From contig NIVC01000986.1 of NCBI GenBank assembly GCA_002269645.1, forward strand, positions 310,001 through 374,000: a stretch of 64,000 nt of DNA. The letters are read 5' to 3'. A program made the translations under genes and the position numbers. Position 1 is the stretch's first letter. Each line of letters starts with the position of its first letter. The notes beneath the pieces were generated by a model. The model ran no database searches and was not told the DNA's origin. It saw only the letters and a program-made list of their open reading frames with translations. Positions 32,665-60,962 of the stretch are shown piece after piece. Source of the DNA: Macrostomum lignano. Its lineage: Eukaryota.

Positions 32665-32674
32665 AGAACAAAAA

Positions 32675-33091: not shown

Positions 33092-33101
33092 CAATATAAA
33101 A

Positions 33102-34091: not shown

Positions 34092-34174
34092 GCTCCTGTG
34101 GGGAGGGTCAGGACGACTAAAACCTAAAATTAAAAACCAATAATTCAAATATTATATAAATTTTATTCTATAAA

Positions 34175-40100: not shown

Positions 40101-41457
40101 CGCAGTCAAAGGAGGCAGAGTATTTGCACTAATAAATAAATACGAAAGCGACTGTTTTCAAACAATTGTAGACGTTGTAAAATACCATTTAAAAATACCA
40201 ACAAGCGACCCATGCGAGGTTATATCAACTCATCTCAAAAGCGATATGGAAGAAAAAAAGAAAATCGCAATTAAACTAAAAAACCAATTGGGTACCGTAT
40301 CAGATTGTTTAATGAATTTTGATGGAGTCTCGTTGTATCCATCTGCCATGTCTGATAAGGATAGCGAATATCCAAGAGCAGAAACAGCCAGAGTGTTTGA
40401 TATAAGCGAGGAAAAGGATTTTTTGACACAATTTAATTCACAAACCTTTCGACCAAAAACAGCGGTTTTAAAGATTATGTATGAGAATCCCACTAGCGTT
40501 TTTCTTCAACATCTCCCATCGAAAGACAAAGAGAAAGTTTATAATCCGGAAACAAAAGCAAACGAAACAAAAACATTAAATAGGTTTAGAAATGGAAAGG
40601 TAATCGGCACTTTATGTTCCGTAGACATACAAGAAATTGTAAGAATGGGTGGAAAAATATTAAAGATATATAGTGGAATTGTATATGAAAAAAATTACGA
40701 TTTCTCTCCGTTTCAGAATTATATTACAAACCTTTTTGAAATGAGAAAAGTATTTAAAAAAGAAAATAACGAGGCAGGTTCTGAAGTAGTAAAAACATTG
40801 TTAAATTCCTTATATGGTAAAACGGTTCAAAGAGACATTACTTTCACAACGCATCTCTGGAATTTGAATACATTAAAAACAGAATACGATGACACAATCA
40901 AGTCATATGAGAAAATATGTGACGATTTATTTTATGTTGAAAAAAAGAAAGACACACAAGAATATGTAGATGACGACGATAGTCCTACAACAGGCCTTTG
41001 TCCGGCACAATTAGGCATATTTATCTTAGCTCATTCAAGAAGGATCATGAATAATTTTATCACCTCTATAGACGGTTCAAAGACTCCAGAAATTTATTAC
41101 GGTGATACGGATTCATTATATATACATAAAAAACATTGGGATACATTAAATAAAAACGGATATGTCGGAAATAATTTAAGTCAAGGAAAAAACTATTATG
41201 GAGAGGGTGGAATTATATTCGGATATTTTATTGCTCCTAAAATTAAATATTGTCTTTTATTGAAAGACGATTTTATTATGGAAGAGAAAAAAACATTTAA
41301 AGGATGTGCAAAGGATAAGATTAATTTTGCATCGTTTAAAACTTTATATGATGGACAGTCAATAAAAGTAAATAATAATGCTCCGTGGAAACGATCGTTT
41401 GAAGGTGGTATTGTAGCGTACTTTAATAACTTTCCCGAAATTTCTTCAGATTTCTAA
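34175..41457 (+). pseudogene. polB: pPolB of Maverick C (frameshift at about 34841, TAA at 36172, split by a transposon at 36190-40063)
   Basis: CYIPSDGNCF, YIFDFET, AHNSSRFDSY, VKGGRV, FDGVSLYPSAM, KTLLNSLYGK, YYGDTDSLY. Removing the insertion gives K*FSVHSHTNPYIRRF in frame. Confidence 0.93.
36190..40063. mobile_element. Non-autonomous CMC/EnSpm-type DNA transposon
   Basis: TIRs CCCAG(A/T)GGAAAAGG, 2-bp TSD CT (36188-36189 and 40064-40065), subterminal CAACGG/CCGTTG repeats, no transposase. Possible short exons on the minus strand at about 36800-37210. Confidence 0.9.
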
Positions 41458-42013
41458 AAGTCAAAAACTATTTCCAGAAACTTCTTTGAGTTAGCAGCTA
41501 ATCTATAACATACGCATATAAATAGTAAATAATTAATTATCACTTAAGTATTAATGTTCTAATTATATTTACGTAATGTATATAATTAAAGGGTTATTTC
41601 GCTTTGTTAAAATTAGCTAAATCTTTCTAGAAATTTCCGGAAGGCAATAACAAGGCTATAAATACACGGCGGCAGCAGTGAAACAAATCACTCTCTCGCT
41701 TTCCCCTTGTTTTCTCTTTGATCTAAGTTCCGTTGGTAAATAACTAAATGAACCACCGCCTTGCTCTTATTCAATAATCAATTAAAGAAAATTCTACAGT
41801 ATAACAATTCCTCAAAGCGGATCAACCATATCAAAAACGTATACGTCTTCGATAAACACATTTAAAAGAGAAAAACCAGATAAAAACGGAGTTATGAAAC
41901 CATTCTTTAAAAACTATTTTGATGACAAACCACAACACGAACATTCAATTGAATATTATAACAGCTTACTATATGACGTAGACTATAATTGTTTTGAGTT
42001 CGATATTGATGAA

Positions 42014-42376
42014 CTAGCACTTATCGATTAAAGCTCGCGACCCTACGGGGCGATAAAAAACCAAAGCATGTAATTGTTTAAGCATAATATCCATTTCAAT
42101 TTCGTATTTTATTGAGCACCAATTGTCCTCACAGTCGGCAGGGTAACTTAAACATTCTTTTACTTTTTTCCTAAGTACTTTTATTCTCCTAACAAGACGA
42201 TCGATTTCAATTTCAATTACTGTTTCAGCATAAGCAATTGCGCTTTTGATAAAACGCTTTCTTTTATCCAACTCGTATCGGATAGGAAACATATCATCCC
42301 CATAATCACTATAATATAATATATTAATATCATTCATTTCGCGCTCTTTTGTAACTAGGATCTTTAGTGTCTCCAT
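42014..42376 (-). CDS. Hypothetical protein
   Basis: ATG-started ORF in the gene-dense accessory block; no recognised motif. Confidence 0.55.
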   Translation of the reverse strand: METLKILVTKEREMNDINILYYSDYGDDMFPIRYELDKRKRFIKSAIAYAETVIEIEIDRLVRRIKVLRKKVKECLSYPADCEDNWCSIKYEIEMDIMLKQLHALVFYRPVGSRALIDKC

Positions 42377-42397
42377 TTTCTTATAAAAAATTTAAAC

Positions 42398-42727
42398 TTA
42401 TTCAGAGTCTTCCTCCCAAACGGAAGCTAACCTTACAGTCCTGTCACACTTTTTATTTTTTGTTTGTTTTAGTTTAAATTGCAACCCACTCTCCCGACTG
42501 TATTTCATAACAAACGTTTTAGGTTTATTAATAACTAAAACTGGAAAATTTTTAACATCATCCCCGCTTAGACATAGGACAGTATGCCCATCTAATTGTA
42601 AAAATATCGATTGAATTCCAATAAATTTAACCTGTCGCAAACATATAATATTATATTCTTTATTCTCCAACATATTGGGCGCGAGAAAATTAATCACATT
42701 AGAATCGGTTTTGAACCAGCGCTCCAT
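42398..42727 (-). CDS. Hypothetical protein
   Basis: ATG at 42727 preceded by the A-rich leader seen for other genes in this element. Confidence 0.5.
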   Translation of the reverse strand: MERWFKTDSNVINFLAPNMLENKEYNIICLRQVKFIGIQSIFLQLDGHTVLCLSGDDVKNFPVLVINKPKTFVMKYSRESGLQFKLKQTKNKKCDRTVRLASVWEEDSE

Positions 42728-42752
42728 TTTTAATCTAAAAAAATAACAAAAA

Positions 42753-43265
42753 ATGAAAGACATTTACGAATGTAATAAATGTAATGTGGTCATGCATAGA
42801 GGCCAAACAGCAAATGGAGATATATATCACATGTGTTATTCATGTTCTAAAATATATCAATTTGAAAAAACAAAAAAGATTGAAAACTCATATTACTATT
42901 TTAAAAACACAATTTTAAGAAATCTTACAAGGGACATTTCCCATCCAATTTTAATCCCCGGAAATAATGTTTATTTATATAACAACTTTTTCCATTTAAA
43001 TAAAGGAAAGGGATTAAGTTCGAAAGACTCTGAAAGGATTTTAATTTTAGTTGGATATTATTTCAATTTTCTTATACGAGAGAATACAAAGTTTATAAGG
43101 ATAGGCAACATACCTAACGAAAGGTTATTGAAAAAGTCATTGGAATTTTTATGTATTGATAAAAAATTTAAACCTAGGATTATAAGAGAGTTACCACTTT
43201 GGGAAGAATATATAACATATGCATTAAATAAATTAAACAACCTGAAGTTCTACAGTACTTCCTGA
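42753..43265 (+). CDS. Hypothetical protein with N-terminal zinc ribbon
   Basis: CNKC...CYSC. Confidence 0.55.
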   Translation: MKDIYECNKCNVVMHRGQTANGDIYHMCYSCSKIYQFEKTKKIENSYYYFKNTILRNLTRDISHPILIPGNNVYLYNNFFHLNKGKGLSSKDSERILILVGYYFNFLIRENTKFIRIGNIPNERLLKKSLEFLCIDKKFKPRIIRELPLWEEYITYALNKLNNLKFYSTS

Positions 43266-43739
43266 CCGCGGGCTTTGTACTCCCATACTCATAATTTCCG
43301 GTTTGTATTCAATAGTTTCTATAGGCGGAGCTTTGGGTTTGTCTAAACGTAATTCTTTCAACTCCATATCGGTAAAAGTTTCAACATCCAAAATCCTATT
43401 TCTATCTTTTAAATATTTTTCATATAATTCAACCGCCGTTGATAACTCATGAATCGTTATCTCTCCATCATCCAATATTTTTTGCACATATAAATATAAC
43501 TGGTTTTTATATTGTTTAGCAATGTCTCTTAACGATTTATATTTTTCCTTTCGTTTTTTAAGATATAATTTGATTGCCAAAAGTATTGATAAGTTTCTGA
43601 TTAATTCAAAACCTGATGTTGAACCAATTGAAATACTTAAAAATTGAGATAAATTAAGAGTTGGAACAGACTGTAAAATACCCAAAACGATTACACATAA
43701 CATCGATAAGCTTCCACAACCAATATTGAAAAAATCCAT
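43233..43739 (-). CDS. Hypothetical membrane protein
   Basis: Two N-terminal hydrophobic segments, then a charged domain. Confidence 0.55.
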   Translation of the reverse strand: MDFFNIGCGSLSMLCVIVLGILQSVPTLNLSQFLSISIGSTSGFELIRNLSILLAIKLYLKKRKEKYKSLRDIAKQYKNQLYLYVQKILDDGEITIHELSTAVELYEKYLKDRNRILDVETFTDMELKELRLDKPKAPPIETIEYKPEIMSMGVQSPRSGSTVELQVV

Positions 43740-43859
43740 ATTTCTGATATGGTTTGAAACCCTTCTTACTTTTTTAGTATATAAATCATAATCATAGTTA
43801 ATGCGATCAACATGTGACCCTTACGTTGGTTAAAATGGTCACGTTCCCTTTTATCTGCT

Positions 43860-44186
43860 TCAGACACCGACATTTTCGTCTATTTTTAATAGCACCAAAA
43901 TGAATTCCCCGCGCTCTTTGGGGATTTTTCCTGAGCTCAATAGGTATTGTATCGGACTTATTCTTTCTTTTTTCTCCCATTTAAATCCAATCTTCCAAAA
44001 CTCTTGAAGTATAATATGATTTTTTAATAATTTAATTAATTTTTGAAGCTTCTTATTATCCTGAACATTCACATTGCTAAATAAAAATTTGGTATGAGAT
44101 TTGAATGTTTTTATAATCGGTTCTTGTTTAGGAATTGGAATAATAACATTATTTTGCCGCATCGATGGAGTTCTACTAAAAGCCAT
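43860..44186 (-). CDS. Hypothetical basic protein
   Basis: ATG-started ORF co-directional with the structural operon. Confidence 0.5.
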   Translation of the reverse strand: MAFSRTPSMRQNNVIIPIPKQEPIIKTFKSHTKFLFSNVNVQDNKKLQKLIKLLKNHIILQEFWKIGFKWEKKERISPIQYLLSSGKIPKERGEFILVLLKIDENVGV

Positions 44187-44202
44187 TTTATATATAAATA
44201 TT

Positions 44203-46073
44203 TTATATTGCTACAGGAGGTTTTTCTAAATAAGCGGTAGAGGGAAAAACATAACCAAACGATGTGCTACCACAAACGGCTGCGCCACGAATAAAATGTG
44301 CAGCATCCGATCCTCCAGTTCGAGCACCAAAACCCATAAGAGTTCCACTTTTATCCAAAGTTCCCCAAGTGCCACTATCATATGTGAAAACGTTCTGCCC
44401 AATGAGGGTATAAGAATCTGCTGAAACATTGTATAAACTTAATTGATACCAAACCCTTTGATTAAGAATATTGATTTCAAACAGATGCCAATCACCATTA
44501 TCAATGTTGGCGTAGGCTACTGTTTGATCCGCGTCATTAAGAACATCTTTACGAACCGTAGATCTGTCTGATTTTTTATTACTCCAAACAACTCCAAACC
44601 TATCATGCCACTCACTAGCAAACACTATCAATCCAGCGTCTGTTGCTAAATCAGTCCCATTTTCCAATGTTGGTCGTTCGTGACAATATGCATAAAACCA
44701 AACGGCATCTGCACCACTTCCTGTAGCATTAGCAACTCGGAAAAAGAAAGACGCAGATATATTTTGAAAATGTGTGAAATTGAATTGTAAAGCACCACTT
44801 ACACCTGAGGTTTCACGAGTAATTCTAGCACCATTTTGATAATCAATATAAGAAGCGTCGCCAATTAAAGACCCAACTAGATATATATCTCCGGCGGTTG
44901 TTGGATTTTGATATCCACTCCAGTTACAAATTACTGGCTCGAATAATGCGGCATCAATGGCGGGAATATTATCCAATTTGTTTTTATCGCCGGCAGACAT
45001 TCTACCATTTGAAGTTGGTGTTGCTACCTGATCTACGTACGCTCGCGGGGTTGCAGAAAGTATTTGATCGGCCAATTAAGATCTTGAATTTCAACTCGGT
45101 GTTCAAATAATTGTATTAGGCGAACTTCGATAGGTTGCGTAACTGTCCCACCAGTTGGGAACAAAACGCTATAATTTCCAAAAATTAACCGTTAAATTAG
45201 TTAACGCAAATGAAGTTGCTTGAATTGGTGATCCCGACGTTCGTAATACCGTCCATGCATCGGTAGCAACATTTTTTGCGCGCACCGACCACCCTGAGGG
45301 TATTTCAATTGTTGCGCTGCCTGTAATTCTTAATTCATTTATTCTTCGATTATAACCTAAAAATTCAAATTGAATTTCCATATTGGTTGTGGTTCCGGTA
45401 TTTGGTGACCATTGTGTCGCAAGGCTTCCATCTCCAACTCGAAAAGCATCGTTGGTATTTTCGGATGCTGTAAGAACAACATCAGGATTTGAAGTATTTG
45501 ATGTAAGCGGCGTGGCAAAAATATCGGCGTCAGTTACATTAGCTCGAGCGTTGACTTGGCCGAGATTTACCGAGTCTGTGTCCTCTGTTCCAAATAATAA
45601 ATTTGTTAATTTAAAATTATTCATATTAATATTGCCAGTACGACTACCAACCTGATTATCGACATAGTTCTTATCAACTACCGAGTTATTCGTTGTAATT
45701 GCAACATTTATAATTCGATTGTTATCCATATCTAAGGTTCCGGTTGCGGTGGTTTGAACATAGCGTGAATCAGAATCAGTTCGAGAATAAGAATCAGTTA
45801 TATCTCTTTTTAAATTTAACCCAGTGTCAACTTCTGTTCTCGTATATGAATCACTAATATCTCTTTTAAGATTTAATGAAGTGTCGATTTCGGTTTTGGT
45901 ATAGGAATCTGCAACATTTCTTTTTAAATTTAGTTTAGTATCAATTTCAGTTTTTTATAACCTTCATCTTCATTAATATATCGGTTATCTCCGAATGTAA
46001 CACTTATTCCGCCAGTTGTACCACCACCAGTACTTGTTGTTCCATTCCATGAGAGTGTTCCAGAAAATATCAT
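44203..46073 (-). CDS. Fibre/spike-like adhesin of about 620 aa (three apparent frameshifts): 19-aa stalk repeats, discoidin (F5/8C)-like and L-type lectin domains
   Basis: ATG at 46073; YTKTEIDTxLNLKRxxxDS repeats; GNINMNNFKLTNL...DSVNLGQV; ASE..NDAFRVGDG..TQW; ATPTSNGRMSAGDKNKLDNI; GSGADAVWF...GFGARTGG. Frameshifts at about 45955, 45180 and 45075. Confidence 0.75.
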
Positions 46074-46083
46074 TTTTTACTGC

Positions 46084-46497
46084 CTATTTTATAGAGTCTA
46101 AAATCGCCTTAAAGTCTTCGGGTCTTTCCTTAGATTTGTTAATTTTATATAAAAAATATAACGCCGCCTGTCCGCAATAACTTTTGTCAAATGTTAGAAA
46201 CTGTTCGTGATGATCTCCACATAATCGGTTTTTAGTATGATTAAATTTGTCTTTTATTTCCTGTAACGGAGGAAGGGCATATGAATCAAAAAAATAAACA
46301 AGTTTGGGTTTTGAATAAACTGCTGACCAATGAACGCCATAACATGAACATCCATATTTTGGTAAGTCTTTGATCTCATCTCGCATAACACATCTTAATG
46401 GTTTTATCTTTAGTTGTCGCGCCCAATTTGTCAATTCAATATTGCTTGTTGTGTCAGTTCCATATCTTTGTTTGAAATCGCCCCAAGTTATTACCAT
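46084..46497 (-). CDS. Adenain-like cysteine protease, possibly with an internal deletion
   Basis: GVHWSA, YFFDSY, EQF...SYCGQ. The usual I/VNLD segment before HW appears missing. Confidence 0.85.
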   Translation of the reverse strand: MVITWGDFKQRYGTDTTSNIELTNWARQLKIKPLRCVMRDEIKDLPKYGCSCYGVHWSAVYSKPKLVYFFDSYALPPLQEIKDKFNHTKNRLCGDHHEQFLTFDKSYCGQAALYFLYKINKSKERPEDFKAILDSIK

Positions 46498-46682
46498 TTT
46501 ATGTTGCTGAAAAACTCTTGGTTTTGGTTAGTTTCGTAGGTGTGGGTTTTAACAACTCCTTTCGGATTTTTTCTGCTTGAAGTTGTTTCAATTTTGTTAG
46601 TTCGATTTCATAATTATCCTTTGCATTTTGAACTTTATCTGATAGTTTTTTTATACCATTATTATTACCCATTTTTACTATA

Positions 46683-47468
46683 TTAAACCTGTTTTATACG
46701 TAAAATTACCGTTATTGACTGTCCGCCAAAACTTATTAACCTATCGCTTTCGTCTACGATCCTAATATAAATTGATAGAACACTATATTGATTTAAAGGA
46801 TAATATATTGGGGTTTGGGTTGCAACAATCATTTTCTCTCCAATTGGAACAGCAAGAAAGGGAATTGAATAAATGATGCCACGTTGAACCAAAACTCCGT
46901 TATCATCTGTTATATAACCGCCGTTTGATATGTCGGTTGTTATATTAATTGTATTGACTCCACCCTCAATGTTTCCCACTGTATCGCCGGTGCTTGATGT
47001 GGTAACTATTCGGGAATTAAATCCTAGTATGGTTCTGAGTGAATTTGCTATTGTGAAATCAACCTGATATCCAGATCCTAGTGATAGCGTGAATCTTCCC
47101 GATGGTAAATCAACCCCTATAACAATCGCGCCCGCTACCCAATCACCATTAGCTGTTAATTCTCCTTCTATATAAGCATTCAAATCGGTATAGCTATAAG
47201 CCCCTGGATTAACGCTAAATGTTGTCCAATTGGCTCCTGAATCTTTAGAATATCTAAATTGATTATTTGTTGCATTAATTAATTGAGGCATGTTAAAAAC
47301 TGAAAATAGTATCAAACCTATTTGATAACTTAGGCTTTGATCGAGTTGTAACGGATCGCGCAATTGAATCCGTTGCTCGCTGCTTGTCATTATAAACTGT
47401 AAGGTTGTACTAAATTTTGAATTAGTTCGATCTACCAATTGTTTTATAGTGTCTAAATTTGTTGCCAT
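46683..47468 (-). CDS. Minor capsid protein
   Basis: INATNNQFRYSKDSGANW...GAYSYTDLN...INITTDIS...IYSIP...IRIVDESDRLISF. Confidence 0.85.
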   Translation of the reverse strand: MATNLDTIKQLVDRTNSKFSTTLQFIMTSSEQRIQLRDPLQLDQSLSYQIGLILFSVFNMPQLINATNNQFRYSKDSGANWTTFSVNPGAYSYTDLNAYIEGELTANGDWVAGAIVIGVDLPSGRFTLSLGSGYQVDFTIANSLRTILGFNSRIVTTSSTGDTVGNIEGGVNTINITTDISNGGYITDDNGVLVQRGIIYSIPFLAVPIGEKMIVATQTPIYYPLNQYSVLSIYIRIVDESDRLISFGGQSITVILRIKQV

Positions 47469-47512
47469 TTTTATAGTGGGAATTGTGCTTTAATCAGCCC
47501 ATGGGCTGCAGA

Positions 47513-48285
47513 CTAAGACTGATCCTCGTCCTCGTTATCTTCATTTATCAGATTTTTAAAGATTCGATTTTTCCTTTCAAGTCTTGGGTTGATATATATG
47601 TGTTTGTATTGACTATCATCCCAAATTTTTTTACTCATACTTTTAAATGGTTTTGTATCCAACCCAGGATTAAATATAGCGTGTATATTTTGTAGATCGT
47701 AGTTATCCAAATCAAACATTACACAACAACTTGCATTCTTTTTTATAATCGGTTCTAATTCTCTAAAGGACTGTGTTAGATAAACAGCTCCAATTCCATC
47801 ACCTCTGCCACTAACAAAATTTCCTTTTGCAATTCTTGATCGCCATCGTTAATACAATCGTCAAAAATATTTAGTGTTTTATCATGTTTTGGAATTTGAT
47901 CGTAGGATAATCGGGTTGATACTCTAACATTTGGGGCTCGGTTGTTAGTGATAGTGTTTTCTGGATCTTCTGCCGTTGTTTTACATAAATCCTCAATGTC
48001 TGATAGAGTAAATCGCGGTTCGTCAACATCCTCATATTTCTCATAAGCCCTTAACATTCTAAACAAGATATCTTTTTTTAATTTGTTTTTTAATCCATGT
48101 TTAAGAAATTCATAATATTTTATTCTAGGTTTGTTAGTATATATTAATAAATTATTATAGTCTAACATTCCGTCGGTTGTTAACAGGTCATAAACAAAGT
48201 GTGTTTTTCCTTTACCTGACCCTTCAATTACTAAACAAAGAAAAGGATCGTTTGGAAATATAATATTGTGTTTTGCTTTTACCAT
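47513..48285 (-). pseudogene. Packaging ATPase (frameshift at about 47820; Walker A reads IEGSGKGKT)
   Basis: Walker B LNIFDD; the shifted frame gives FVSGRG...VYLTQSF...KKNASCCVMF and joins ORF 47513-47719. Confidence 0.88.
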
Positions 48286-48304
48286 TTTTAAGGAAATAAT
48301 TTAT

Positions 48305-49786
48305 CTAATTTTTATCTAAGGGCACATCCCAAACGATAGTGCCGTCTGCTTTAGCAATTGACATATATTCCTCTAGAAACAATACGTGGGCGTCTATTGC
48401 CTGATTGCTGGTTTTATTAATCTCTAACATATAATTAAGTCCAACATTGGATACGTTTTCTTTCTGTGCCATTAGATCATAAACAACCACTGGGTGAATG
48501 TTTAGAAACTCTGTGGTTGTGTACTGAGGGACAGCATACGCTTCATTTTTGACATAATCCTGATAATATTTTATAAAATCATTGACATCATTATTTGCTA
48601 TGTTTAGATTAAGGGGGTCTTTAACCGGATAATATTTGTCATCAACCTGCAGGCGGATATTCTGAACATTAAACTCGTTAATAGCCGAAACCGCGTTGTC
48701 GGTTGCGGTGGCTGCTTGTGCTGCTATGTCACCCAATTGAAGCCAATATAAATCCCCATTTGCTCTTTTACTCCTTCTGTTTGTTATCTTAAACCAAACA
48801 AAAATATATCTCACCCGACGTTTTGATGTAATTATCTGCCACTGGAACGAATCCTGGTTATTATTAATGGTTCGCATAAAGTGTCGACGATTCAAATAAA
48901 ATATTTCTTGATCAACCATTAACTGATTATCGACATGTTTTAAAAGCGGCGCCGTTAGCTCGAGTTTTGGCACGACTAATTGAATTGATGCTATGCGAAC
49001 TGCTATATCGGTTGAAATCGAGGTTCCATAAAGTATCCTAGGCTGATATCCACCAGAAATTTGCAACTGTATCCCAAATTTTAATCCTTTCCATACCCGA
49101 TTTGGTGAGAAGAACCCAAATAGTGGGAAGATTGAAAAGTCCTGCTCATATGCGGTTGCTGTGGTTAAAACCGCGACTGGGAATTTATTCTGACGATCTA
49201 TAAAACCTGTATTAATATATTTTGTGTTAGTCATGGTGGTTACAACTGGAACTATATTGGTATTAAGATAAGCAATAAGAGCTGCGGTATCTGCGCCAGC
49301 TGCATTTTGTACGTTAGGGAAAACTACTGCTTGACCATTACCCTTATCAGGCATCCATCCAACACTATCACCAACTTGTTTTGATAAATAAGTATAATTT
49401 AAATGTTTCAAAACTCCATTAATCTCTGCTGGGTTTGATGCTGTCTCAACCTCGGCTCCATTAACTGTTAGTTGGGCTTGGGAAAAACATTTATAAAACC
49501 AATCATTTTCTATAATAATACCAGAACGATCTGCGATATCGCCGGCTGCAAGAGCGGTTCCATCATTTCTGGTATACAACCATCTAACGCGGAAAAATGC
49601 GTTTTTCATATCCAAAACGCTGTCGGCCGCGCCAATGTCAAAAGTTACCGTTCCGGTAGTAAAGTTATTTGAATTATCGCTTGTTGTTAGAGTATAATTT
49701 AAATCTCTTGCCCTGACCTCATTAATATACTGACGATGCTTTTTGAAATGAAATTTATCGCTCCATATGGTTTTTGTTTCAGCCAT
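48305..49786 (-). CDS. Major capsid protein
   Basis: 493 aa; FSQAQLTVNGAEVE, LVVPKLEL, FQWQI...RYIFVWF, RLQVDDKYYP, VVYDL; located next to the ATPase and minor capsid. Confidence 0.88.
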   Translation of the reverse strand: MAETKTIWSDKFHFKKHRQYINEVRARDLNYTLTTSDNSNNFTTGTVTFDIGAADSVLDMKNAFFRVRWLYTRNDGTALAAGDIADRSGIIIENDWFYKCFSQAQLTVNGAEVETASNPAEINGVLKHLNYTYLSKQVGDSVGWMPDKGNGQAVVFPNVQNAAGADTAALIAYLNTNIVPVVTTMTNTKYINTGFIDRQNKFPVAVLTTATAYEQDFSIFPLFGFFSPNRVWKGLKFGIQLQISGGYQPRILYGTSISTDIAVRIASIQLVVPKLELTAPLLKHVDNQLMVDQEIFYLNRRHFMRTINNNQDSFQWQIITSKRRVRYIFVWFKITNRRSKRANGDLYWLQLGDIAAQAATATDNAVSAINEFNVQNIRLQVDDKYYPVKDPLNLNIANNDVNDFIKYYQDYVKNEAYAVPQYTTTEFLNIHPVVVYDLMAQKENVSNVGLNYMLEINKTSNQAIDAHVLFLEEYMSIAKADGTIVWDVPLDKN

Positions 49787-49820
49787 TTTTTTAAGTTAAA
49801 AAAGTTTTTTATGTTAAAAA

Positions 49821-50444
49821 ATGAGTCAATTTATGGATGTTGATGGAGAGTTAGCGATTTATAAAGAGAAGCAAAGATATTCTGATTTTGTTAGAAACTT
49901 ACAAAAAAGAAAGTTAGGAATACAATTAGCTGGCGAAAAATTTGCTGCTCCTTTTGTTAATCCTATAATGGGGAAAATTAGTGAACTAGAAAAAACAGAT
50001 AAAGACCTTCTTGAAAAAATTGCTAAGAATACGGAGCCAAAAGAGGATGAAATTTTGGATGAGCCGCCTGCTTATGATGTTGATCAAGCGCTATTGAGAG
50101 TTGCAGAGATTAGACGTGCAGAGCGGGGTGGAGTTGATGAATATCCGAGAGCTGCACCACAAAGTATTGCTGTGGTGGATTTAGGTAATGATAATTATCG
50201 AATTGGTGGATTTGATAAAAATCGGAATGAGCTATATAGAGAATTGGGTGGAGCATATAATATTATTATGAACCCTAGGGTAAGATTTAACCCTGAATTA
50301 TATACTAGGGATGAATTAGTAAGTGCTAAAAATTTTTATGATGAATTAGGAGTAAGAGCTGCTAAAAATACCAGCTTGTATAAAAGGATTGTTGATTCTA
50401 TAAATAACAAACCGGCTGTTGGTGAAGGATTTAAAACTCCGTGA
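49821..50444 (+). CDS. Hypothetical conserved Maverick protein
   Basis: Intact 207-aa ORF divergent from the MCP; C-terminal GEGF motif. Confidence 0.6.
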   Translation: MSQFMDVDGELAIYKEKQRYSDFVRNLQKRKLGIQLAGEKFAAPFVNPIMGKISELEKTDKDLLEKIAKNTEPKEDEILDEPPAYDVDQALLRVAEIRRAERGGVDEYPRAAPQSIAVVDLGNDNYRIGGFDKNRNELYRELGGAYNIIMNPRVRFNPELYTRDELVSAKNFYDELGVRAAKNTSLYKRIVDSINNKPAVGEGFKTP

Positions 50445-50512
50445 AAACTTGTTTTAGCTGCTGCGAAAGCTGCTGGACATACGGGAATTTAGTTAAATTT
50501 ATTTTTTATAAA

Positions 50513-51085
50513 ATGGAAACTAAAAAGATTTGTACTAAGTGTAAAGAAGAAAAACCAATGACTAAAGAGTTTTTTTGTTGGAGAAATGATTCAAAAAAAA
50601 TTAGAAATGATTGTCGATTGTGTCATAATACTTCGTCTACGATGTGGATGAAAAACAATAAAGATAAATGGAAAGAATATAGAAAAAATAAATATCACAC
50701 TGATGAAAATTACAAAAATATTACTTTAATTAGAAATAGAATAAATAGGTCATTATCAACTTTTAATGACAAGGACTATATCTCATATCTTGGTTGTACA
50801 AAAGAATTCTTTTTTGATTGGCTAAATTTTACAAGAAATTATTATGTGTCAAAAGATTATGATGGTGCTTTACATATTGATCATTTAATTCCAGCTTCTT
50901 CATTTAGTTACAAAGACGAACATCAGATGAAAAAGTCTGAACATTGGACAAATAAAAGATACTTAACTAGTGTAGATAATTACTATAAAAAAGTTAAACA
51001 ACCAACCATCGAAGAGTTTGCAAAACAATTAGTGTTAACTTGTATTTTTAAGGCTATTAAAAATGAGCAATCAATTAGTATTTGA
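50513..51085 (+). CDS. HNH-type (viral homing-like) endonuclease with N-terminal zinc ribbon
   Basis: CTKC...CRLC, YLGC, HIDHLIP...HWTN...DN. ATG at 50513; the end overlaps the PLA2 start. Confidence 0.82.
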   Translation: METKKICTKCKEEKPMTKEFFCWRNDSKKIRNDCRLCHNTSSTMWMKNNKDKWKEYRKNKYHTDENYKNITLIRNRINRSLSTFNDKDYISYLGCTKEFFFDWLNFTRNYYVSKDYDGALHIDHLIPASSFSYKDEHQMKKSEHWTNKRYLTSVDNYYKKVKQPTIEEFAKQLVLTCIFKAIKNEQSISI

Positions 51086-54000
51086 AGGAGGATTGTTGGA
51101 TGTTCAAAAAGGATTAACAAGCTTACCACCAATCTTTACTACTGGGAAGCATACAAATGAACTACATATTCCAGGCTATTCATTTACAGGTTAACCCGTG
51201 GCCTGAGTGGTAGAAGCAAAGCTACTGCTAGTCACTATTTGTGGCGACATCTTCAAATTGCGTGAAACCCGTCATACAGCTTCAAGTACCACTTCAACTG
51301 AGAAATCTTTTGAAGGCCCTACTCTCCTTGCATGGATAAATCATGGATGAAGCATCCATGATGCCATGTATGGATCATACCTGAACATGTATGGAGCCAT
51401 ACCTGATCATACATGGTTCCACGTAAACTTCATCCATGGTTACTTTCCATCCATGTACATTGATGTATGATTTTAAATATAATTTTCCTTACTACACTAC
51501 TGTTAGTAGAACGCAATGTTTGCGTAGGTTCATTTTAAAGCTGAAATTTTCTAAACAAATTCGGCAGCATCTTTAGTGCTGCTGAGAAATATGTTTCCAT
51601 TCCCTTATAAATCACTTTCAAAACAAAAAAGTATCAGAACAAATACTTATGCAATTAAATGTAGAAGTAATTGAAAACTCGTATGATGACCATTTCGAGA
51701 CTTATATTATTAATGATAATTAGGCATAATTCATTTCAAAGTACTGTAAGAAAAAATAAGACAGCTCAGTCTCAGAGAGCTTTAAAATACAGAATGGACA
51801 GAATTTGACGCATTTCAAGGTACTGTAAGAAAAAATAAGACAGCTCAGAGAGCTTTAAAATACAGAATAGACAGAATTTGACGCATTTCAAGGTACTGTA
51901 AGAAAAAATAAAACAGCTCAGAGAGCTTTAAAATACAGAATAGACAGAATTTGACGCATTTCAAGGTACTGTAAGAAAAAATAAAACAGCTCAGAGAGCT
52001 TTAAAATACAGAATAGACAGAATTTGACGCATTTCAAGGTACTGTAAGAAAAAATAAAACAGCTCAGAGAGCTTTAAAATACAGAATAGACAGAATTTGA
52101 CGCATTTCAAGGTACTGTAAGAAAAATAAAACAGCTCAGAGAGCTTTAAGATACAGAATAGACAGAATTTGACGCATTTCAAGGTACTGTAAGAAAAAAT
52201 AAAACAGCTCAGAGAGCTTTAAGATACAGAATAGACAGAATTTGACGCATTTCAAGGTACTGTAAGAAAAAATAAAACAGTAAATTTTACTGAACAGTCA
52301 ATAAATAGAATTAGCCGAATTCGGTACGCATTAAGGGCAAGGGCCGACTAATCCTTTACGAAACGAAGTTAATGCTGCATTAGTCAATTATTTGCGCACA
52401 GAAACTTGGAGATTTTGAATATGGAGAGATCGGACAAAGAGAGGTAACGGTGGGAGTCTGAGAGGGAGGAAGTTGGGCATCTGGAAAGTTATTCTGATTC
52501 CCTGATGGTTTTATCTTGGTCATGGAGCATAATTTTATTTTCTGCCAGACTTTGCAGCATTAATAATAAAATAATCGGATCTAAGGTACGGACACATACT
52601 CGTACCTTTTTAATCATGTTCAAACTCTTTGAACAATGGCACAGCGCAATAACAGTCTTTGCTGAACGATTCTACTGGAACAGCGATGCAGGGTCGATCG
52701 ACCTCTGAAAAATTAACTATACGTTCGCGTCTGGCCGATCTGGGCGCATTAGACAGGGATATCAATACAAAATTGAATGTCGAAGACTTTTTGAACATGG
52801 ATTCCAGCAATGCTTTCCAATTAAGTAAATCGATGGGGAAAGTTGCTGCTGGTACTCGTAAAACAAAATCAAACAGCGAACCAATGGGATCCAAAATTTG
52901 CACTCGAATAGTATTAGGCTCGAGGAACTCTGCAATAGTGCAGATTTCGCCGGACTTCAATTGGCAAAGATGGTTAGAATTTTTCGACGCACAAGCTGAG
53001 CTTGTCGAGAAAAAATGTCCATTAAAATAAGCAAGTGAGTTTCGAAGAATACCATGTGGCCTGGATGGCTCTAAAGATATAGAGTTAACTGCATCCACTA
53101 CAATAGAGTCCTTAACACAAGAAAAGTAGTGATGTAGCAACTTTTGAAACAAAAACTTGCGAACAAGCTGTGGGCCAAATGACACAGTTCCGCATAAGAA
53201 CTTTTTGAACATGCCAATGGAGCTCTCAAATGCGAACATAGAATAATTAAATACAGGTCCGTACAATTCGTACTGTTCAGCCATATGCAAAAGCAGGTGG
53301 AAATTAAGGCGGAGTACTTTCGGTCCGAATATTTGCTGAGCATTGGAGATAAAAGCTTTGCATAGCTTTTCGATATCAGTCTTATTTGATTGGGGGCTAT
53401 ACAACATGTGATAAATAAGAACTAAATTAGTTAACAGCAGTTTCAATGGAAAATGCGAAATTCTCTGCAAAAACGTAGGAAGAAGAAAGTATAGCGCAAA
53501 GTTTTTAAAATGCTTTGCTTTCCAATCTGAAAAGCCTTTAAAATTTGTGTTGATTGTGATGCTAGAAGGAGTTATAGATTGACGAATACAATTAGATATG
53601 AAATCCATGCAATTAGCTGAGCAAAAATACAACTCGCGCCTGTTTGCAGGTAATGACAGCTCTTCTAGTAGATACTTGGTGTGGCCTTCGAAAAAGCAGT
53701 GTAAACTGTCAATAGGATTGCAGCTGGGAAACGGAACATAGTCTAACAAGCAACTGCGCATCTTTACGCCAAAAACAGGCCGATTTCGAATTTGTGCGAG
53801 CCGACAGTGTTCAAGATGGGAAGATGGGTTTCTCAAAGGAAACAAGTAGCCTTCACCATAGCGGAAGATCCAGTTTTTACCTTTCTCGGATACTTTAAAG
53901 CTCTCACCTGGGTGCAAGCACCTAGGACAGCTAAACGCACCATTGTACTGGTGAATGCAGAAGAGCTTAGCAAGAGCGGGCAAGTCACAAACAAAGAGTG

Positions 54001-57000
54001 TGTAATGGACATGAACGGTGTATTCCGAGAATATAAACTGTTTTGGCAAATTGTTCATAATTTCAGACAGAAAAGACTGGAAATGCGGGACTGCCTTCGA
54101 TGAAACAAGAGCAATTAGAATTAAATTTGCAAAGCGTTGACGGATGTAAACAGGAAGGTTTAGAAGTTGAGCCTGAAATGGCCAAAAGCTACTCTGAACA
54201 GATTCAAAAAAATTGGCGCCATCAGCTGAGATTAGAAGATGCAAGTGAAGCGACTTGCCAGAAGATAGGCTTAAGCCTTGTTCTTTAACTATTTTGGAAT
54301 TCAAAACGTCTGTGTTTTTATCCTTTTGCAATTCTTGCTCATACTGCAGAATAGTTGAAGTGTGGCTGCTTAAGATAGTCCGCAGCTGTGGAACAATATT
54401 GAGCTGTGTCACAGCAACCTTTGACTTTGGGGAATGAACCTGACACTGGCTTTTGCATTCTGGGCAAAAGCCAAATTCAGACACGTCACTATCATCAAGA
54501 GGGCAAGTATCTTGAATCAATGATTTGAGCAACTTGACGCTATTTGGAAGAGCTAGAGAATCTCTACTAAAAATAGAAAGTAGCTTCAGGAGTCTATCAA
54601 GAGCAGCCTCTGAAACTCCGGAAGTAATTGCCCACTGAAAAATCAGAGCCGCCTGCACACTGGGATCTGAGATGGAAGCCAAATTCGCTAAGCTATCTGA
54701 ACTCTCCTCAAGCACAGGCACAGCATTGTTTTCACCAATAAAAGTTTCCACAGCGTCAGGACAGCTGTGCGAGTGCGTTACACCGGCTTCGCTTGAAATT
54801 GAACTCCTATTACTTGTAGAAAAACTATTTGAGGGAGAAGAAATCGCCTGACAAGAGTAGGCTGAGTAATTAGTAGAAAGAGAGTGCTCAGATTCTGATT
54901 TACTAGACATAAAAATAGCAATTCAAATATTCAAAAGTTACTAGAATTTTTTCCGCAATTCACGGTCCCATTCGCCTTGAGCGGGAAATGGAATCCCCTG
55001 ACTCGGGTCCAGAAGCAGCAGTTGAAGTTCGCTTTCTCGCCCGTGTCTCCTCCCTGGCCAGCTGATTGAGATGGTCTCGTACAGACTTCCAGATTTCGTG
55101 GAAGTCGTAGCCAGATGTTCGATAGCACAATTGAAGCAAACCTGAAAATTCACGAGTATAGTAAAATATTTTTACAATAGACATTGTGTACTGTGTTTAT
55201 AGTAGAAATAGGCTAAATTTAAAAGGAAGTTGATTTATGATGCTAATCATTAAATAGGTCAATGGGATGTATTGAACTTTAGAACTATTTTTCCTCAATT
55301 TCTTTTATCTCAGACCTAAATGTGTTTTTTTAGAAAATATCCCAAGTATTGGATTCAGATCATTTAGCATTAATTAGCCTAAATTGCTTTATAATAAAAA
55401 AATTGCACAAAACTGTGAAAAAATTATATATATATATTTACGTTGAAACTCTGTCACATGCTCAGATGGAGCAGGCCTTCGGGAACTGCGAGCACCACAG
55501 GATGAATCGATTATATGCTCAAGCAAGTAGCCTTCGCCAAATCGCAGCTTGATATACCTTCGGAGGAACACCTTAGGATCGTTGCAAAGAATTGAAGACA
55601 GCTCAGCTAGGGAACCATCAATGCACCTAAATTCCTAAAAAATGTTATTATATAGTAGAACTTTTATACTACAGACGTGATGCTGCTGATGCTAAGAAAA
55701 AACTGACATACCTCATTTTGGTATTCTTTAATTGTTAGCATTCCACCAAAGTTGTCATCCTTTTTTAAAAGTCGGCATATCCTTGCAGCAAGACGCTTCT
55801 CAAGAGAAAGCAACTCGGATTGAATGAACAGTTTTAGATCTAGAGTAAGATATATGCTCATATATAAAAATATGGTGATTTTGATTTTTAATAATGTGAT
55901 TGTATCATATTAAAAAAATAAAATTATACCTTTCATTGTTGCATCCGATTCACTGTTTACTATCTGTACCCCTCGGAGGGGTTGCACTTCTTGAATTGCA
56001 CCTAGTGATAAAAAAGGCTTATTGCTACAAAAATATTGACTCATTTGGTATTTGGTTTTCAATTAGGTGTAATAGAATATACAAACTTGATTCCAAGAGG
56101 CCTGTGGCACGAGCTTGCTCATTTTCAACCAAAGATGCCTCTCTCTCAAATGCAGAAATGGCTTTTTCTAAAAAATAATAATTAATCAAATAATACAACA
56201 AAAAAAACAAATTGCAAACAATTAATAGTTCATATATATTGCAGTTTTACCCATTGATTGAGTAGCTGGTATCGCCAAATTTGGTTCGCCACTTTCACTA
56301 TCCACTTCATAAAGCTCGTCAAGTAGTCCATGCTGATGACAACTAGAACTTGAAGCAACCTGCTTTGAACTAGATGACCTTATTGTCCTTACATTTGCAA
56401 TGCCAGCTTGGGGATCTTTCATTGCAAAAAGCTCAATAGCTTGGCTAATCAATGAATCAGTATTTTCAGCCTCACTAACCAAGTTGGAAAGTTGGTTCAT
56501 AGTTGAAGCCATTTGCCTTTCACTACCTTTTGCCACAAGTGTAGCAGAAAATAGTTTGCCATACATGCGTAAAAAGACTTTAGTCCCCTAAAATATAATT
56601 TAATAAAGTAATATTACATTTGTAGTTGGAATAATTTGTTTTAGAAACCATGTACTCAATAACAAAATATTATGCATATAAATCCAACTTAAAATCTTAC
56701 TTGTGCAAGTTCCAACTTTTCATCATTAGTTATTGTACTTGGCCAATAGGGAGACCCAAATGCAATGGTCACATATTGCTCATCATGGCCAACATTGTGA
56801 AGAATAAAGCAGAAAAACAATGCTGAATTGTCATTTCCAAATTTAGAAGTACTTTTTGTCTGCTTTCGAAGAGGCCTAGAATTAGATGCACTTAATCCAA
56901 TATCATCCATAACAATTTGTTCTGAAAAAGTTTCACAAGGAGATAAGGTTTGAAGAATCAATCAAGAGGCCAATGACAAACCAATTAGAATTGTATATAA

Positions 57001-59377
57001 AAAAAATTTAATGTAGGGACCCTAGGCCCCTATGATTTTAAATAAAAATTATAATATAAGGCCTAGGCCCTATATATAGGCCTATAATTATAAAGTTGTG
57101 CCATTGTGGATTTTCTGATACAAAGTAGACAATATTAGGCCTAATTGGGCCTAGTCTAGTCTAGTTTTGATTATAGACTGTATATTAGATACAAAGGACA
57201 TGAAAGGTCTCGAAATTAAGTACCAACCAATTACCATAATATACTATTATTTTTTATTATTTTGAAACTGTCAGCCTACCATGTGATTTTTATCATTAGG
57301 CTATGGCCTAGGTCTAGGATGCCACTTTAGACTAGGCCTTTGGCTTTGGTTAGGCCAACCTATCATTATAAAAATGCAGCAAAATATCATTCAAAAATAT
57401 ACATCTAACCCCTATAGGTTATCTTTGCATCCCAAATATAATATATAATAGGGTTTCTATTTTCTAATATATCTACAAATACAATTTTCACTGAAGGAGT
57501 GAAGATCAAAATTAGCATGTCAAAAAACCTTACAAGCCACCGAATTTTAAAACTAGCTACCAAAAGTGGAACTGGAAGTATATAGCTAAGAAAAAACATA
57601 AACATAAACATAGCACATAGTGACACATAATGAAATGATGACAACATGCAAGAGTGACAGAGTCCTCTTAGAAAGGAAAAATAGGCCTAGTAATTTATGT
57701 TTATGGGAAGTTAAGTCCGTAATTAACTAAACCGAAACAAAATGGCCAACAAAATTGCTGGTAATATATTCAAAGCAATTTGTAGGTGAAGATTTTAACA
57801 AATTTATTAAACTATTTTTTGTATTTACAATTTCGCTTTTATTAAATATATTTAAAACTTTATTAGATATACATAAAATAGCCTGAAATTTTTTATAAGC
57901 TTAGTTATTTATTTTCCCGTATGAACTCCCTGACATGGATGATTTTACCATGGAAAGTTTTAAAAATCCATGCATGAAAATACCATGAACATGCATGATT
58001 TATCAATGGATCATGGATCATAGATGATTTATCCATGATAAGAGAGTAGGGGGAACAGAGGTAACTCCTCTTCCCAAAGGTAACAAGCTTGAAGACACGG
58101 TGGCAATGCGCAGCCAAGCTCCTAAGTATTTAATATAAGGAGAAGGTTCAGAGAGCAGACGGAGGTGGGCGGTAATCATCGCCGCTTAAGGTGTGCTCCA
58201 GCCTATTTTGAAAGATTTAGGGCAAACTGCCGGGACTCGGCTGGATTTGAGATTAAATCCTGATAATACTCCAAAAGCTGATTCGATTCCCATAAATGGT
58301 ATTGATTGGTTAGCATATTATCATGACTTAGCATACAGAGATGCTGACAAGAACTCACCCGAGGAAGCATTAAGATTAAAACATGAAGCCGATAGAAAAA
58401 TGATTCAAGGATTAGATGATTTACAAGGATTATCGGTAAGCCAAAGATTAACTCGGTGGATGGTTAAAAGGATTCTGCAGTCTGAAGTTAAATTTGGTTT
58501 AGGAATTAATTATAACCGACATGGAAATAATTGTGTTGAATGTTTGCTGTTAAGTGGTAGTGGGTTAAGTTCTGATGAGGCAAAGGTTCTTCACAAAGAA
58601 TACCGAAAACCTAAATTTTATAGAAAAATCATGAACTTCAAAAAGAATGAAATTTGGTATGCTGATTTAATGTCAATGCCAAACGAAAATGGATATAAAT
58701 ATATCTTAACCATACTGGATGGTTTTACTCGATACGCGTGGGCTGTTCCTTTAAAATCCAAAAAAGGAGAAGAAGTTGCTGCTGCTTTTAGAAGCCTTGG
58801 AGAAAAAAGTAAAAGATTGTGTGTTGATGAAGGAAAAGAATTTTACAATCCTCATATGTATAAATTGTATCATTTTGAAAAAGGACAAGAAAGGAAAAAG
58901 GACGCGAATGGGGAGTATATTAATAAAATTCATTCTATTTATGGCGAAAGCAAAAACGCACTGATTGAAAGATTTAATCGAACTTTAGGTAAGAAATTAT
59001 GGTTTCAGTTTAGTCTTAATGGTAACCAAAAGTGGGTAAAAATATTGCCAGACGTCGTGAAAGATTATAATAACTCATATCATTCAGCTATAAAGATGAC
59101 TCCTCAACAAGCTTATAACAATCCTGAAAAAGTTAAAGTTACCTTCGGGGACTTTGAAAAAAATAAAAAGAAACCTTTTAAGGTTGGTGATTCCGTTTAT
59201 ATATATAAATGGAAAGATAAGTTTGAAAAGGGAAGAAAAGGATATTGGAAGATAAGTGAGAAATTTACTATCAGTAAGGTTTTAAATACAAATCCTACAA
59301 CCTATATCATTGCTGATAAGGATGGTGAAGAAATATTGGGTTCTTTTTATGAGAATCAGATAATGTCTGCGAACTAA
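51063..59377 (+). CDS. int: PLA2-integrase fusion; exon 1 51063-51191, exon 2 58230-59377 (one base apparently missing at 58230-58231)
   Basis: Exon 1 ends ELHIPGYSFTG; exon 2 reads (P)GTRLDLRL...YYHDLAY...ADRKM...KFGLGI, then WYADL, VDEGKEF, IERFNRTL. Spliced product about 425 aa. Confidence 0.88.
51732..52279. repeat. 73-bp tandem array (7 units plus a partial)
   Basis: CATTTCAAGGTACTGTAAGAAAAAATAAAACAGCTC... at 51732, 51811, 51884, 51957, 52030, 52103, 52175 and 52248. Confidence 0.95.
52610..54910 (-). CDS. CMC/EnSpm-family transposase, 766 aa, intact
   Basis: ISADG...SFWP...NLP...R, VCDLPA, NGAFSCPRC, IDSLHCFFEG, WKAKHF, NFHLLLH...YGP...SMFAFES. Confidence 0.92.
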   Translation of the reverse strand: MSSKSESEHSLSTNYSAYSCQAISSPSNSFSTSNRSSISSEAGVTHSHSCPDAVETFIGENNAVPVLEESSDSLANLASISDPSVQAALIFQWAITSGVSEAALDRLLKLLSIFSRDSLALPNSVKLLKSLIQDTCPLDDSDVSEFGFCPECKSQCQVHSPKSKVAVTQLNIVPQLRTILSSHTSTILQYEQELQKDKNTDVLNSKIVKEQGLSLSSGKSLHLHLLISADGANFFESVQSSFWPFQAQLLNLPVYIRQRFANLILIALVSSKAVPHFQSFLSEIMNNLPKQFIFSEYTVHVHYTLFVCDLPALAKLFCIHQYNGAFSCPRCLHPGESFKVSEKGKNWIFRYGEGYLFPLRNPSSHLEHCRLAQIRNRPVFGVKMRSCLLDYVPFPSCNPIDSLHCFFEGHTKYLLEELSLPANRRELYFCSANCMDFISNCIRQSITPSSITINTNFKGFSDWKAKHFKNFALYFLLPTFLQRISHFPLKLLLTNLVLIYHMLYSPQSNKTDIEKLCKAFISNAQQIFGPKVLRLNFHLLLHMAEQYELYGPVFNYSMFAFESSIGMFKKFLCGTVSFGPQLVRKFLFQKLLHHYFSCVKDSIVVDAVNSISLEPSRPHGILRNSLAYFNGHFFSTSSACASKNSNHLCQLKSGEICTIAEFLEPNTIRVQILDPIGSLFDFVLRVPAATFPIDLLNWKALLESMFKKSSTFNFVLISLSNAPRSARRERIVNFSEVDRPCIAVPVESFSKDCYCAVPLFKEFEHD
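54960..56580 (-). CDS. Multi-exon accessory gene of the EnSpm element, BEN-like C-terminus (boundaries approximate)
   Basis: Short GT-AG introns, e.g. 35 nt at 55635-55669, join ITSV to EFRCIDGSL...FLRRYIKLRF...; last exon EIWKSVRDHLNQLAREE. Confidence 0.42.
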
Positions 59378-59643
59378 GTTCGAACAGTTACTTAAGGCAA
59401 CATGGTAGTAAATTTTTTATAACAAACAAAAACAATATTATTACTATTATTGTTACTAATATTATTATTGACATTTGTTCAACAGTAATTAGACTTAAAT
59501 TTTCATTAAGTTCATTAATCGGCACATTTCCGATGTAGGAGTAGTTTACCTTCATTTTTTTAAATATTTTTTTAAATATTTAAATATTTTTAAAAATTTT
59601 TCAAAATAAATGTAGTTTCTGTTATAGAATAATAGTTCATTTT

Positions 59644-59862
59644 TTACATACTCTCCGAATCACTAGTTTCATAAGAACTATTTGTTGAGTTGGAATCATC
59701 TGAACGAACCTCCCAATCGTCTGAATTTAAATAATCTCCAAGTTGAAATATTAACTCGCCCTCTTGTTCTAAATCATACAACCCATCCAACTCTAACGGA
59801 TAAAGTTTTAGTTCGTGCTTATCGTCATATTTTAAATAAACTTCATCAATTATTCGATTCAA
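59644..59862 (-). CDS. Small acidic hypothetical protein
   Basis: 72-aa ORF next to the right TIR. Confidence 0.35.
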   Translation of the reverse strand: MNRIIDEVYLKYDDKHELKLYPLELDGLYDLEQEGELIFQLGDYLNSDDWEVRSDDSNSTNSSYETSDSESM

Positions 59863-59945
59863 AATATGCTGTTTTATTATCTCTGAATTTTTAGCAACAG
59901 TCTCAAAAGTATCACAAACTAACAGAAAAGGTGTAAACTCGGTTC

Positions 59946-60266
59946 ATTTTTAGTAACAGAAAAAGACCCTTTGCGCCTGCGGCGCGGCAGCGGGTTATAG
60001 AGTGTTGGAAGTGTTAGAAGAATTGGGTGCGGTACAAAATTGCCAGCAAACTAAGAGGAGTATTCTCAGAATTCAATGAGAATTAATCGTTGTAAGTGTG
60101 AAATGGGGAGATTGACCGAAATGAAGCGAGGATGAGCGAAGCGAGTTGAGCGAAGTGAAGACGAGCGATAATGAAGGGAAAACAAGTCATTTCACACTGA
60201 TAAAGGGTTAAATCTCTTTGAATTATGAGAACGGTTTGCTGGCAATTTTGTACCGTAAATACTACT
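59946..60266. repeat. Right TIR of Maverick C
   Basis: Ends AAATACTACT, followed by the TSD. Confidence 0.95.
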
Positions 60267-60777: not shown

Positions 60778-60895
<118 letters not shown>

Positions 60896-60962
60896 TTCAT
60901 CTTTCCTCCCCCCTCGTCTCCTCTCTTCTCCTTTATTCCCTCGCCTCTGCTTTCTCCTATTT

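Follow-up and report, generated by a model that had tools for sequence, protein, structure and literature searches.

A group I intron family with an Eco47II-like nuclease in the PLA2-integrase gene of Polintons in an animal genome

Group I introns recognised by the Rfam model RF00028 have been described in Polinton-like viruses of Rhodomonas lacustris, Paulinella micropora and Desmodesmus armatus (PMC12220804). The present analysis concerns a window of 64,000 nucleotides (nt) from Macrostomum lignano (contig NIVC01000986.1, positions 310,001 to 374,000; coordinates below count from its first letter), in which an integrated Polinton bears a group I intron in a gene that fuses a PLA2 domain to an integrase, together with the relatives of that intron elsewhere in the genome. 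The resemblance to the published viruses lies in introns of about 300-380 nt within a protein gene of an integrated Polinton-like virus. The published hosts are protists, the interrupted gene encodes a 50-amino-acid protein upstream of the capsid gene, and no nuclease was assigned. That source calls its introns confined to a few protist groups, whereas those described here occur in an animal, in a PLA2-integrase gene and with a candidate nuclease (PMC12220804).

Bodo saltans virus offers a further parallel, since nuclease-bearing 'parental' introns and 'offspring' introns without an open reading frame (ORF) occupy its essential genes polr2a and polr2b, and trans-homing and competition between related viruses have been proposed for it (PMC5871332). 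In contrast to the Polintons, it is a giant virus of a protist and is not integrated, its nucleases are of the HNH and GIY-YIG types, and its offspring introns lie at other sites, whereas three intron types share one site here. Collaborative homing in phages likewise places a free-standing nuclease beside an ORF-less intron and includes capture of the nuclease into the intron, and both states are present in this genome (PMC3984707). The differences are that the virus is eukaryotic and the nuclease belongs to a restriction-enzyme family.

Nuclear IC1 introns of ribosomal DNA, such as Tetrahymena L1925, share with the present introns P2, P2.1, P5abc, the 5' U.G pair, the G-C pair of P7 and a nuclear location (PMC3679873). 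They are described as confined to the rRNA genes of microbial eukaryotes and as having nucleases of the His-Cys type, in contrast to the protein gene, animal host and PD-(D/E)xK nuclease of this study; neither a His-Cys nuclease nor an rRNA-gene insertion is found here. The intron ND5-717 of Stichodactyla haddoni ends in A in place of G, as do many copies in this genome, and its precise splicing has been published (PMC8146996). It is mitochondrial and fixed, whereas A and G endings coexist here within one intron that has a remodelled P7. Restriction endonucleases of the Eco47II family, with the EcoO109I fold, share PF09553, the fold and the catalytic residues with the intron nuclease, and its distant homologues lie beside C5 methylases. 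Unlike those restriction systems, the Polinton has no methylase, and its nuclease is encoded within a group I intron or next to one.

In a review, such introns are held to be missing from animals outside the basal lineages, five sharks excepted (PMC10964413). The literature searched, which leaves most subscription papers and bioRxiv supplements outside its coverage, yielded no account of them in animal Polintons, and the accessible parts of PMC10748475, PMC11296320, PMC7761336, PMC6545197 and 10.64898/2026.10.13.758929 hold nothing on them. The host kingdom and the compartment are new and the nuclease is unusual; group I introns of Polinton-like and giant viruses were already known. A preprint reportedly deals with circularising group II-like introns in animal Polintons and could mention group I introns. 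The structurally intact copies in an animal protein gene, which number from dozens to hundreds, break the rule that nuclear group I introns are microbial and confined to rRNA genes, and they make splicing of a group I ribozyme from messenger RNA in animal cells testable. The series of copies, comprising an empty site, an ORF-less intron, a free nuclease, a captured nuclease and A or G endings, also provides natural material on the origins of mobile introns.

Intron architecture and types

All helices named in a preliminary description of this DNA are present in the window, and the group I intron is real (Table 1). In P1, exon nucleotides 51187-51191 pair with the guide at 51201-51205, including a U.G pair; P3 comprises 51248-51254/58161-58167 and P7 58153-58157/58194-58198, with a further P7 pair (G58151-C58199) beyond a bulged A58152. 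P4 is present, a GAAA loop caps P9, and the final intron base is G58229. The pairing called P6 in that description exists but is P6a, P6 proper consisting of two pairs. Removal of an EnSpm transposon from the intron leaves, as had been proposed, 125 + 176 = 301 nt, with a 5' half identical at 125/125 positions to an uninterrupted natural copy (L002). Against the covariance model RF00028, the 3' half reaches 20.8 bits (E 0.003) by itself; the window as a whole has no match at the gathering score because the transposon splits the intron. The claim that the reading frame resumes after 58229 did not hold, as exon 2 in the frame of exon 1 stops after six codons. Exon 2 is one base shorter near the junction than in most sisters, a shortfall shared by L014 and L073 and possibly an assembly error. 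With the transposon insertion and the frame offset, the window copy is dead.

Copies elsewhere were sought in an assembly of 764 Mb, of which the window is part. Wnt exons are found there two to four times each at near-equal scores, which shows partial redundancy in the assembly; every copy count given here may therefore be too high. Uninterrupted natural copies measure 299-333 nt. Among 20 sister loci, 15 hold the intron type of the window (type A), and eight of these pass the RF00028 gathering score at 53.6-65.7 bits; the remaining seven are absent from the report at E<=0.01 in a single run, and none of three type B loci or two intron-less loci passes.

The fold is conserved across these copies. 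In 27 distinct type A copies, 73 pairs were counted (P8 and one terminal pair each of P2.1 and P6a being excluded); 1960 of 1971 cells (99%) are paired, including P3 (189/189), P4 (162/162) and P7 (162/162), and six pairs have changed on both sides. With type C and the metagenome contig L092 added (40 sequences), two-sided change is found in 23 of the 73. Sliding the partners by one or two columns leaves 38-48% paired and 0-1 two-sided pairs (2-8 with 40 sequences), a generous control because the copies are closely related and one of them served to define the structure; the two-sided pairs of the distant relatives are the better evidence. P1 with its U.G pair at the 5' splice site is retained in 27/27 type A, 13/13 type C and 4/4 type B copies. 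The compensatory change in P7 that had been noted is indeed two-sided, and the guanosine-site G-C pair is kept in 27/27 type A copies. Given P2, P2.1 and a P5abc extension with a GAAA-capped P5b, the architecture can be classed on sequence as IC1-like. The interpretation as a group I intron of this kind, in a protein gene of an animal-integrated Polinton, stands, but 'canonical' was too strong a word for an intron with altered P7 and J8/7 and with A endings.

The interrupted gene, described earlier as PLA2, does contain that domain and is a PLA2-integrase fusion. Its intron-less ORF in L043 encodes 423 amino acids with PF08398 and PF00665, and five of six homologues from other sources have both domains. 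The genome search advocated in the preliminary description yielded both EnSpm-free and intron-less copies, and the natural intron-less copies L032 and L043 bear out the proposed precise insertion between the Gly and Pro codons of the calcium loop. All 7 copies inspected for it have an open PLA2 frame in exon 1. Among 45 distinct places of this Polinton family (family 1), 43 carry an intron, of type A in 35 and type B in eight, and two are intron-less; in three of the type A places, including the window, one intron end alone lies within the locus. Exact intron-less family-1 motifs number just three in the genome, with two sequences among them, against 134 family-1 exon-2 matches (150 scored of 498 candidates). 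A second family has 19 intron-less copies, all of one variant with C at the splice-site position that requires U. Cognate intron-less alleles, by which mobile introns are recognised, thus amount to three in family 1 and 19 in family 2. Small GC-rich hairpin-like inserts occur near the PLA2 start codon (L006; L018:1188-1253), with the frame kept in both, and similar ones lie inside intron P5 loops (L023, type C); they may be a tiny mobile element.

Three intron types share this site. Type A has P7 GAGCA/UGCUC and a J8/7 altered relative to type C and L092, with the G-C pair kept. Type B (L028:1167-1500, L029, L039, L041, L047-L050) gave 23 full-length matches among 40 scored, 15 of them identical over the query. 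It uses the 5' site of type A, with the guide changed together with the exon, and is 95% identical to type A in P2/P2.1 and 85% in P5abc but only 48% in the core. Its RF00028 score is 31.4 bits, below gathering. Three in-frame positions compete as its 3' splice site, which is uncertain, and none of them restores Gly-Pro. A long pairing with exon 2 is predicted for it (fold z -3.6). Type C (L055:1014-1893, L051-L078) belongs to the second Polinton family, measures 836-895 nt, has a canonical P7 and supplies the 28 best RF00028 matches of the genome (72.7-91 bits), ending in G in all parsed copies (13/13 distinct). Its ORF sits in the P2.1 loop and reads on into the ribozyme core. As peripheral modules are shared and cores differ, recombination between introns is suggested.

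L092, an unrelated contig, carries the same intron plus nuclease at the corresponding codon of its PLA2-integrase gene (80.6 bits), so that this unit is not private to the genome studied. Of 31 viral contigs that show the P7 motif of type A (3) or its 5'-end pattern (28), 20 were scanned; none held a type A copy, and one, L178, has group I introns. The intron at L178:1511-1813 interrupts a giant-virus gene and shares its five-pair P1 with types A and C; by motif, this gene resembles that of the second RNA polymerase subunit. When viral contigs were scanned with single proteins, neither the nuclease nor PLA2 gave a match; alignment-based searches found ten nuclease loci and two PLA2 loci, both of the latter intron-less.

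Splicing and the terminal base

Self-splicing of the intron copies is probable, and the case for function rests on the conserved structure, the open exon 1 and the integrase downstream. The terminal G reported for the window copy is correct for that copy, but among 27 distinct type A sisters 16 end in A and 11 in G, with P9.0 fixing the register. Broken pairs average 0.5 of 73 per A-ending copy and 0.27 per G-ending copy, and the former show no clear excess of decay. The terminal base has switched at least three times on supported branches, only between A and G. An origin of the A ending in a single event was considered and is unsupported (8 changes against a shuffled mean of 8.7; recombination blurs such trees).

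The type A ribozyme could instead be a decayed passenger that no longer splices, with its altered P7 and A ending, the integrase being made from an internal start or borrowed. The 16 copies without a terminal G would fit this, as would the departure of P7 and J8/7 from types C and L092, an in-frame ATG at 58400 upstream of the integrase core, and the failure to see a spliced joint. In four contig sets (X1, X2, X5 and X16) placed on the A-ending L018, the exon-exon joint occurs in none, and contigs cross both splice sites unspliced. This test is weak, because no set is recorded as RNA and a DNA-like set lacks the joint too; contigs drop rare forms, and with loose ends and pieces listed in part only, it neither shows nor excludes splicing. 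Against decay, the changes in P7 are two-sided with the G-C pair intact, the numbers of broken pairs are small in both classes, the ending alternates between two bases alone, P9.0 holds and exon 1 stays open. We regard decay as improbable.

Nuclease, probable target and proposed spread

The preliminary description recognised the intron but omitted the nuclease inside or beside it, the two other types and the published introns of protist Polinton-like viruses (PMC12220804). The type C ORF, full-length in 15 of 27 parsed loci, is a PD-(D/E)xK nuclease of the Eco47II restriction-enzyme family. It matches RE_Eco47II (PF09553) above cut-off; its model (pLDDT 91) has EcoO109I as best fold match (Z 9.6, root-mean-square deviation 3.9, 162 aligned; next Z 7.6), and E49/D65/E76/K78 are invariant in 16/16 aligned sequences. 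The protein has about 160 residues and no extra DNA-binding part. A wide profile search returned 320 proteins at E<=0.001, and 17 homologues at 46-63% identity include several that continue into a similar ribozyme frame; no PHROG match was found for the nuclease or the PLA2 exon. The ORF occupies a peripheral loop in type C and L092 and is lacking in types A (window) and B.

A free-standing Eco47II-like gene, 62-69% identical to the intron nuclease (PF09553 E 8e-5, below cut-off), lies beside ORF-less introns and in neither intron-less copy. It fills the slot upstream of the host gene in eight of the 45 family-1 places; an endonuclease VII/HNH-like gene does so in 36, including the window. That gene, and not the Eco47II-like one, might be thought to mobilise types A and B on the strength of its frequency, but both intron-less copies inspected carry it beside an empty site, and the gene found inside the intron, here and in L092, is the Eco47II-like one. 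This explanation is very improbable.

Homologues at about 30% identity lie near C5 methylases and lack introns, so the nuclease ancestor was presumably a restriction enzyme. The C5-methylase motif is found near 73 of 90 loci with distant homologues (Pfam-confirmed for two) against 0/31 and 0/78 in controls. Among 20 scanned loci with nuclease homologues, a group I intron occurs in L092 alone, with none in the 19 at about 30% identity. No C5-methylase motif was found in the window Polinton or in 78 loci of this genome, and Pfam finds no such enzyme among 19 window proteins.

Eco47II-family enzymes are described as cutters of GGNCC (PMC10305163). Every Gly-Pro codon pair spells this pattern, which the intron interrupts. 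A longer version of the pattern is the target of EcoO109I. The main Polinton body of the window (17.4 kb) contains no GGNCC against 20.1 expected, the lowest of 256 patterns, and its 4629 residues contain no Gly-Pro pair against eight expected. The other Polinton of the window is not depleted (28 vs 34), nor are the nested inserts or a gypsy element. In the intron-less family-1 copies L032 and L043 the sole GGNCC in 3.3 kb is the insertion point, and 44 related family-1 loci have seven against 146 expected, with all four middle bases depleted. It is probable on these grounds that the nuclease cuts GGNCC.

We consider it fairly likely that an animal Polinton lineage has a mobile group I intron, spread by homing of a GGNCC nuclease, and that the window holds a disabled copy of it. 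On transcription, the RNA would remove the intron by the guanosine pathway, so that PLA2-integrase would still be made; A-ending copies would splice too. The nuclease would cut GGNCC, and all sites except the calcium-loop one would have been purged. No silent change can abolish that site, since any choice of Gly and Pro codons yields GGNCC; with all others gone, a five-base cutter would act on the Polinton as a single-site homing nuclease. Co-resident intron-less Polintons would be cut and repaired from an intron-bearing copy, spreading the intron, and the ORF-less types A and B would be mobilised in trans by collaborative homing. The intron would stand in for a methylase by masking the one unavoidable site, and restriction of nuclease expression to lytic replication is one possible safeguard of the host. 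For the fuller picture, an active self-splicing family in animal chromosomes in which a methylase-less five-base cutter homes, the intron confers immunity, modules are exchanged and the remodelled guanosine pocket takes A or G, we see an even chance.

Several observations weigh against homing by a GGNCC cutter and against an active intron. The window copy itself cannot work; a single natural copy folds no better than shuffles (z -1.35), type A core pairs vary only slightly less than unpaired positions (0.028 vs 0.045), and the close relationship of the copies means that pair counts are not independent events. A five-base cutter would be expected to damage host DNA. The upstream nuclease is a different one in most family-1 places. 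CCNGG (6 vs 19.9, second most depleted) and Pro-Gly (2 vs 8) are also low, GGNCC is outside the five lowest patterns in 79 metagenome loci with distant homologues, and 19 intron-less family-2 copies persist. In 31 unrelated viral loci, no palindrome is more depleted than GGNCC (0.47), and L205, an intron-less family-2 copy that lacks a nuclease over 5 kb, is likewise poor in it (2 vs 10.5).

The last two points also speak for ordinary homing, in which the nuclease evolved a long site around the insertion and GGNCC was lost as a side effect of cutting at near-cognate sites or already by ancestors exposed to restriction systems. A long site would spare the host genome, and other PD-(D/E)xK homing enzymes have long recognition sites. 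A long site is harder to reconcile with depletion that is total in the window Polinton, nearly so in its relatives and spread over all middle bases, with the small size of the protein, and with the undepleted neighbouring Polinton. We judge it unlikely.

The GGNCC signature points to competition between co-resident Polintons; such competition would be a sign that they are active, replicating viruses. It also suggests that a restriction enzyme can turn directly into a homing nuclease. Homing by a methylase-less restriction enzyme with purged targets is a mechanism we did not find in the literature searched.

Carrier Polinton and host genome

The carrier has the long terminal repeats, 6-bp duplication, protein-primed polymerase and retroviral-type integrase by which Polintons and adintoviruses are recognised (Table 1). 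Its terminal inverted repeats (319 nt, 32346-32664/59946-60264, 99%) are flanked by the target duplication, and the surrounding DNA is host-like. Pfam identifies DNA_pol_B_2 (type B, protein-primed polymerase), Adeno_PX (adenovirus-like core) and rve (retroviral-type integrase); for capsid, packaging ATPase and protease, candidate ORFs at 46084-49786 had no Pfam match.

Table 1. Features of the carrier Polinton and its interrupted gene in the window
Feature	Coordinates	Strand	Basis
Integrated Polinton (family 1), intron carrier	32347..60266	.	Terminal inverted repeats, target duplication, domains
Free-standing endonuclease VII/HNH-like gene, slot just upstream of host gene	50513..51085	+	phrog_1035 E 8.6e-10
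Exon 1 of PLA2-integrase fusion gene, 43 codons, ending on Gly codon	51063..51191	+	Intron-less ORF in L043
Group I intron type A, 5' half: P1 guide, P2, P2.1, P3 and P4 5' strands, P5, P5a, P5b	51192..51316	+	Identity to L002, pair counts
EnSpm/CMC-type DNA transposon between P5b and P5c	51317..58051	-	Arms, 2-bp duplication, Pfam
Group I intron type A, 3' half: P5c, P4-P6, P7 (58151-58157/58194-58199), P3 3' strand, P8, P9.0, P9, last G	58054..58229	+	RF00028 20.8 bits
Exon 2: remainder of PLA2 domain and rve integrase; out of frame with exon 1	58230..59377	+	Translation, Pfam

The assembly contains 86 matches to Wnt genes and 20 to neurophysin-family genes. Neurophysins are bilaterian; the host genome is that of an animal, probably a bilaterian. 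Intron copies are spread over more than 100 contigs and share contigs with Wnt genes (C506, C67, C393) and with a neurophysin-family gene (C2760), and are therefore chromosomal. The nearest intron relatives lie in environmental contigs, which could suggest that the elements are not chromosomal and derive from a contaminating protist or from free virus DNA in the assembly. The terminal repeats, the duplication in host-like DNA and the number of contigs oppose this, and the shared contigs already largely refute it; we give it hardly any credence. Among the neurophysin-family matches 17 are strong, several on one contig, reflecting either expansion or assembly redundancy.

Further elements populate the window. 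A foreign-looking 3.7-kb block (36200-39940) splits the polymerase gene of the main Polinton and, unlike the Polinton body, has four GGNCC sites. A second, unrelated Polinton (150-8031 and 17542-23936) encodes a polymerase, TBP-like protein, protease, PC4, endonuclease VII, Adeno_PX and integrase, and is interrupted by the gypsy element (~9500-15500). Just past the end of the main Polinton, between microsatellites, retroelement-like ORFs occupy 60762-62224 (reverse-transcriptase-like and GIY-YIG-like by eye); Pfam gave no match for the one ORF scanned. The EnSpm element within the intron has 39-nt arms, 82% complementary, a 2-bp duplication (51315-51316/58052-58053) and a transposase-like ORF (52610-54910) matching DUF1258 at 1.2e-14, with DUF4218 and Transposase_21 below cut-off. 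It also holds a 73-bp tandem array of about eight copies (51732-52353).

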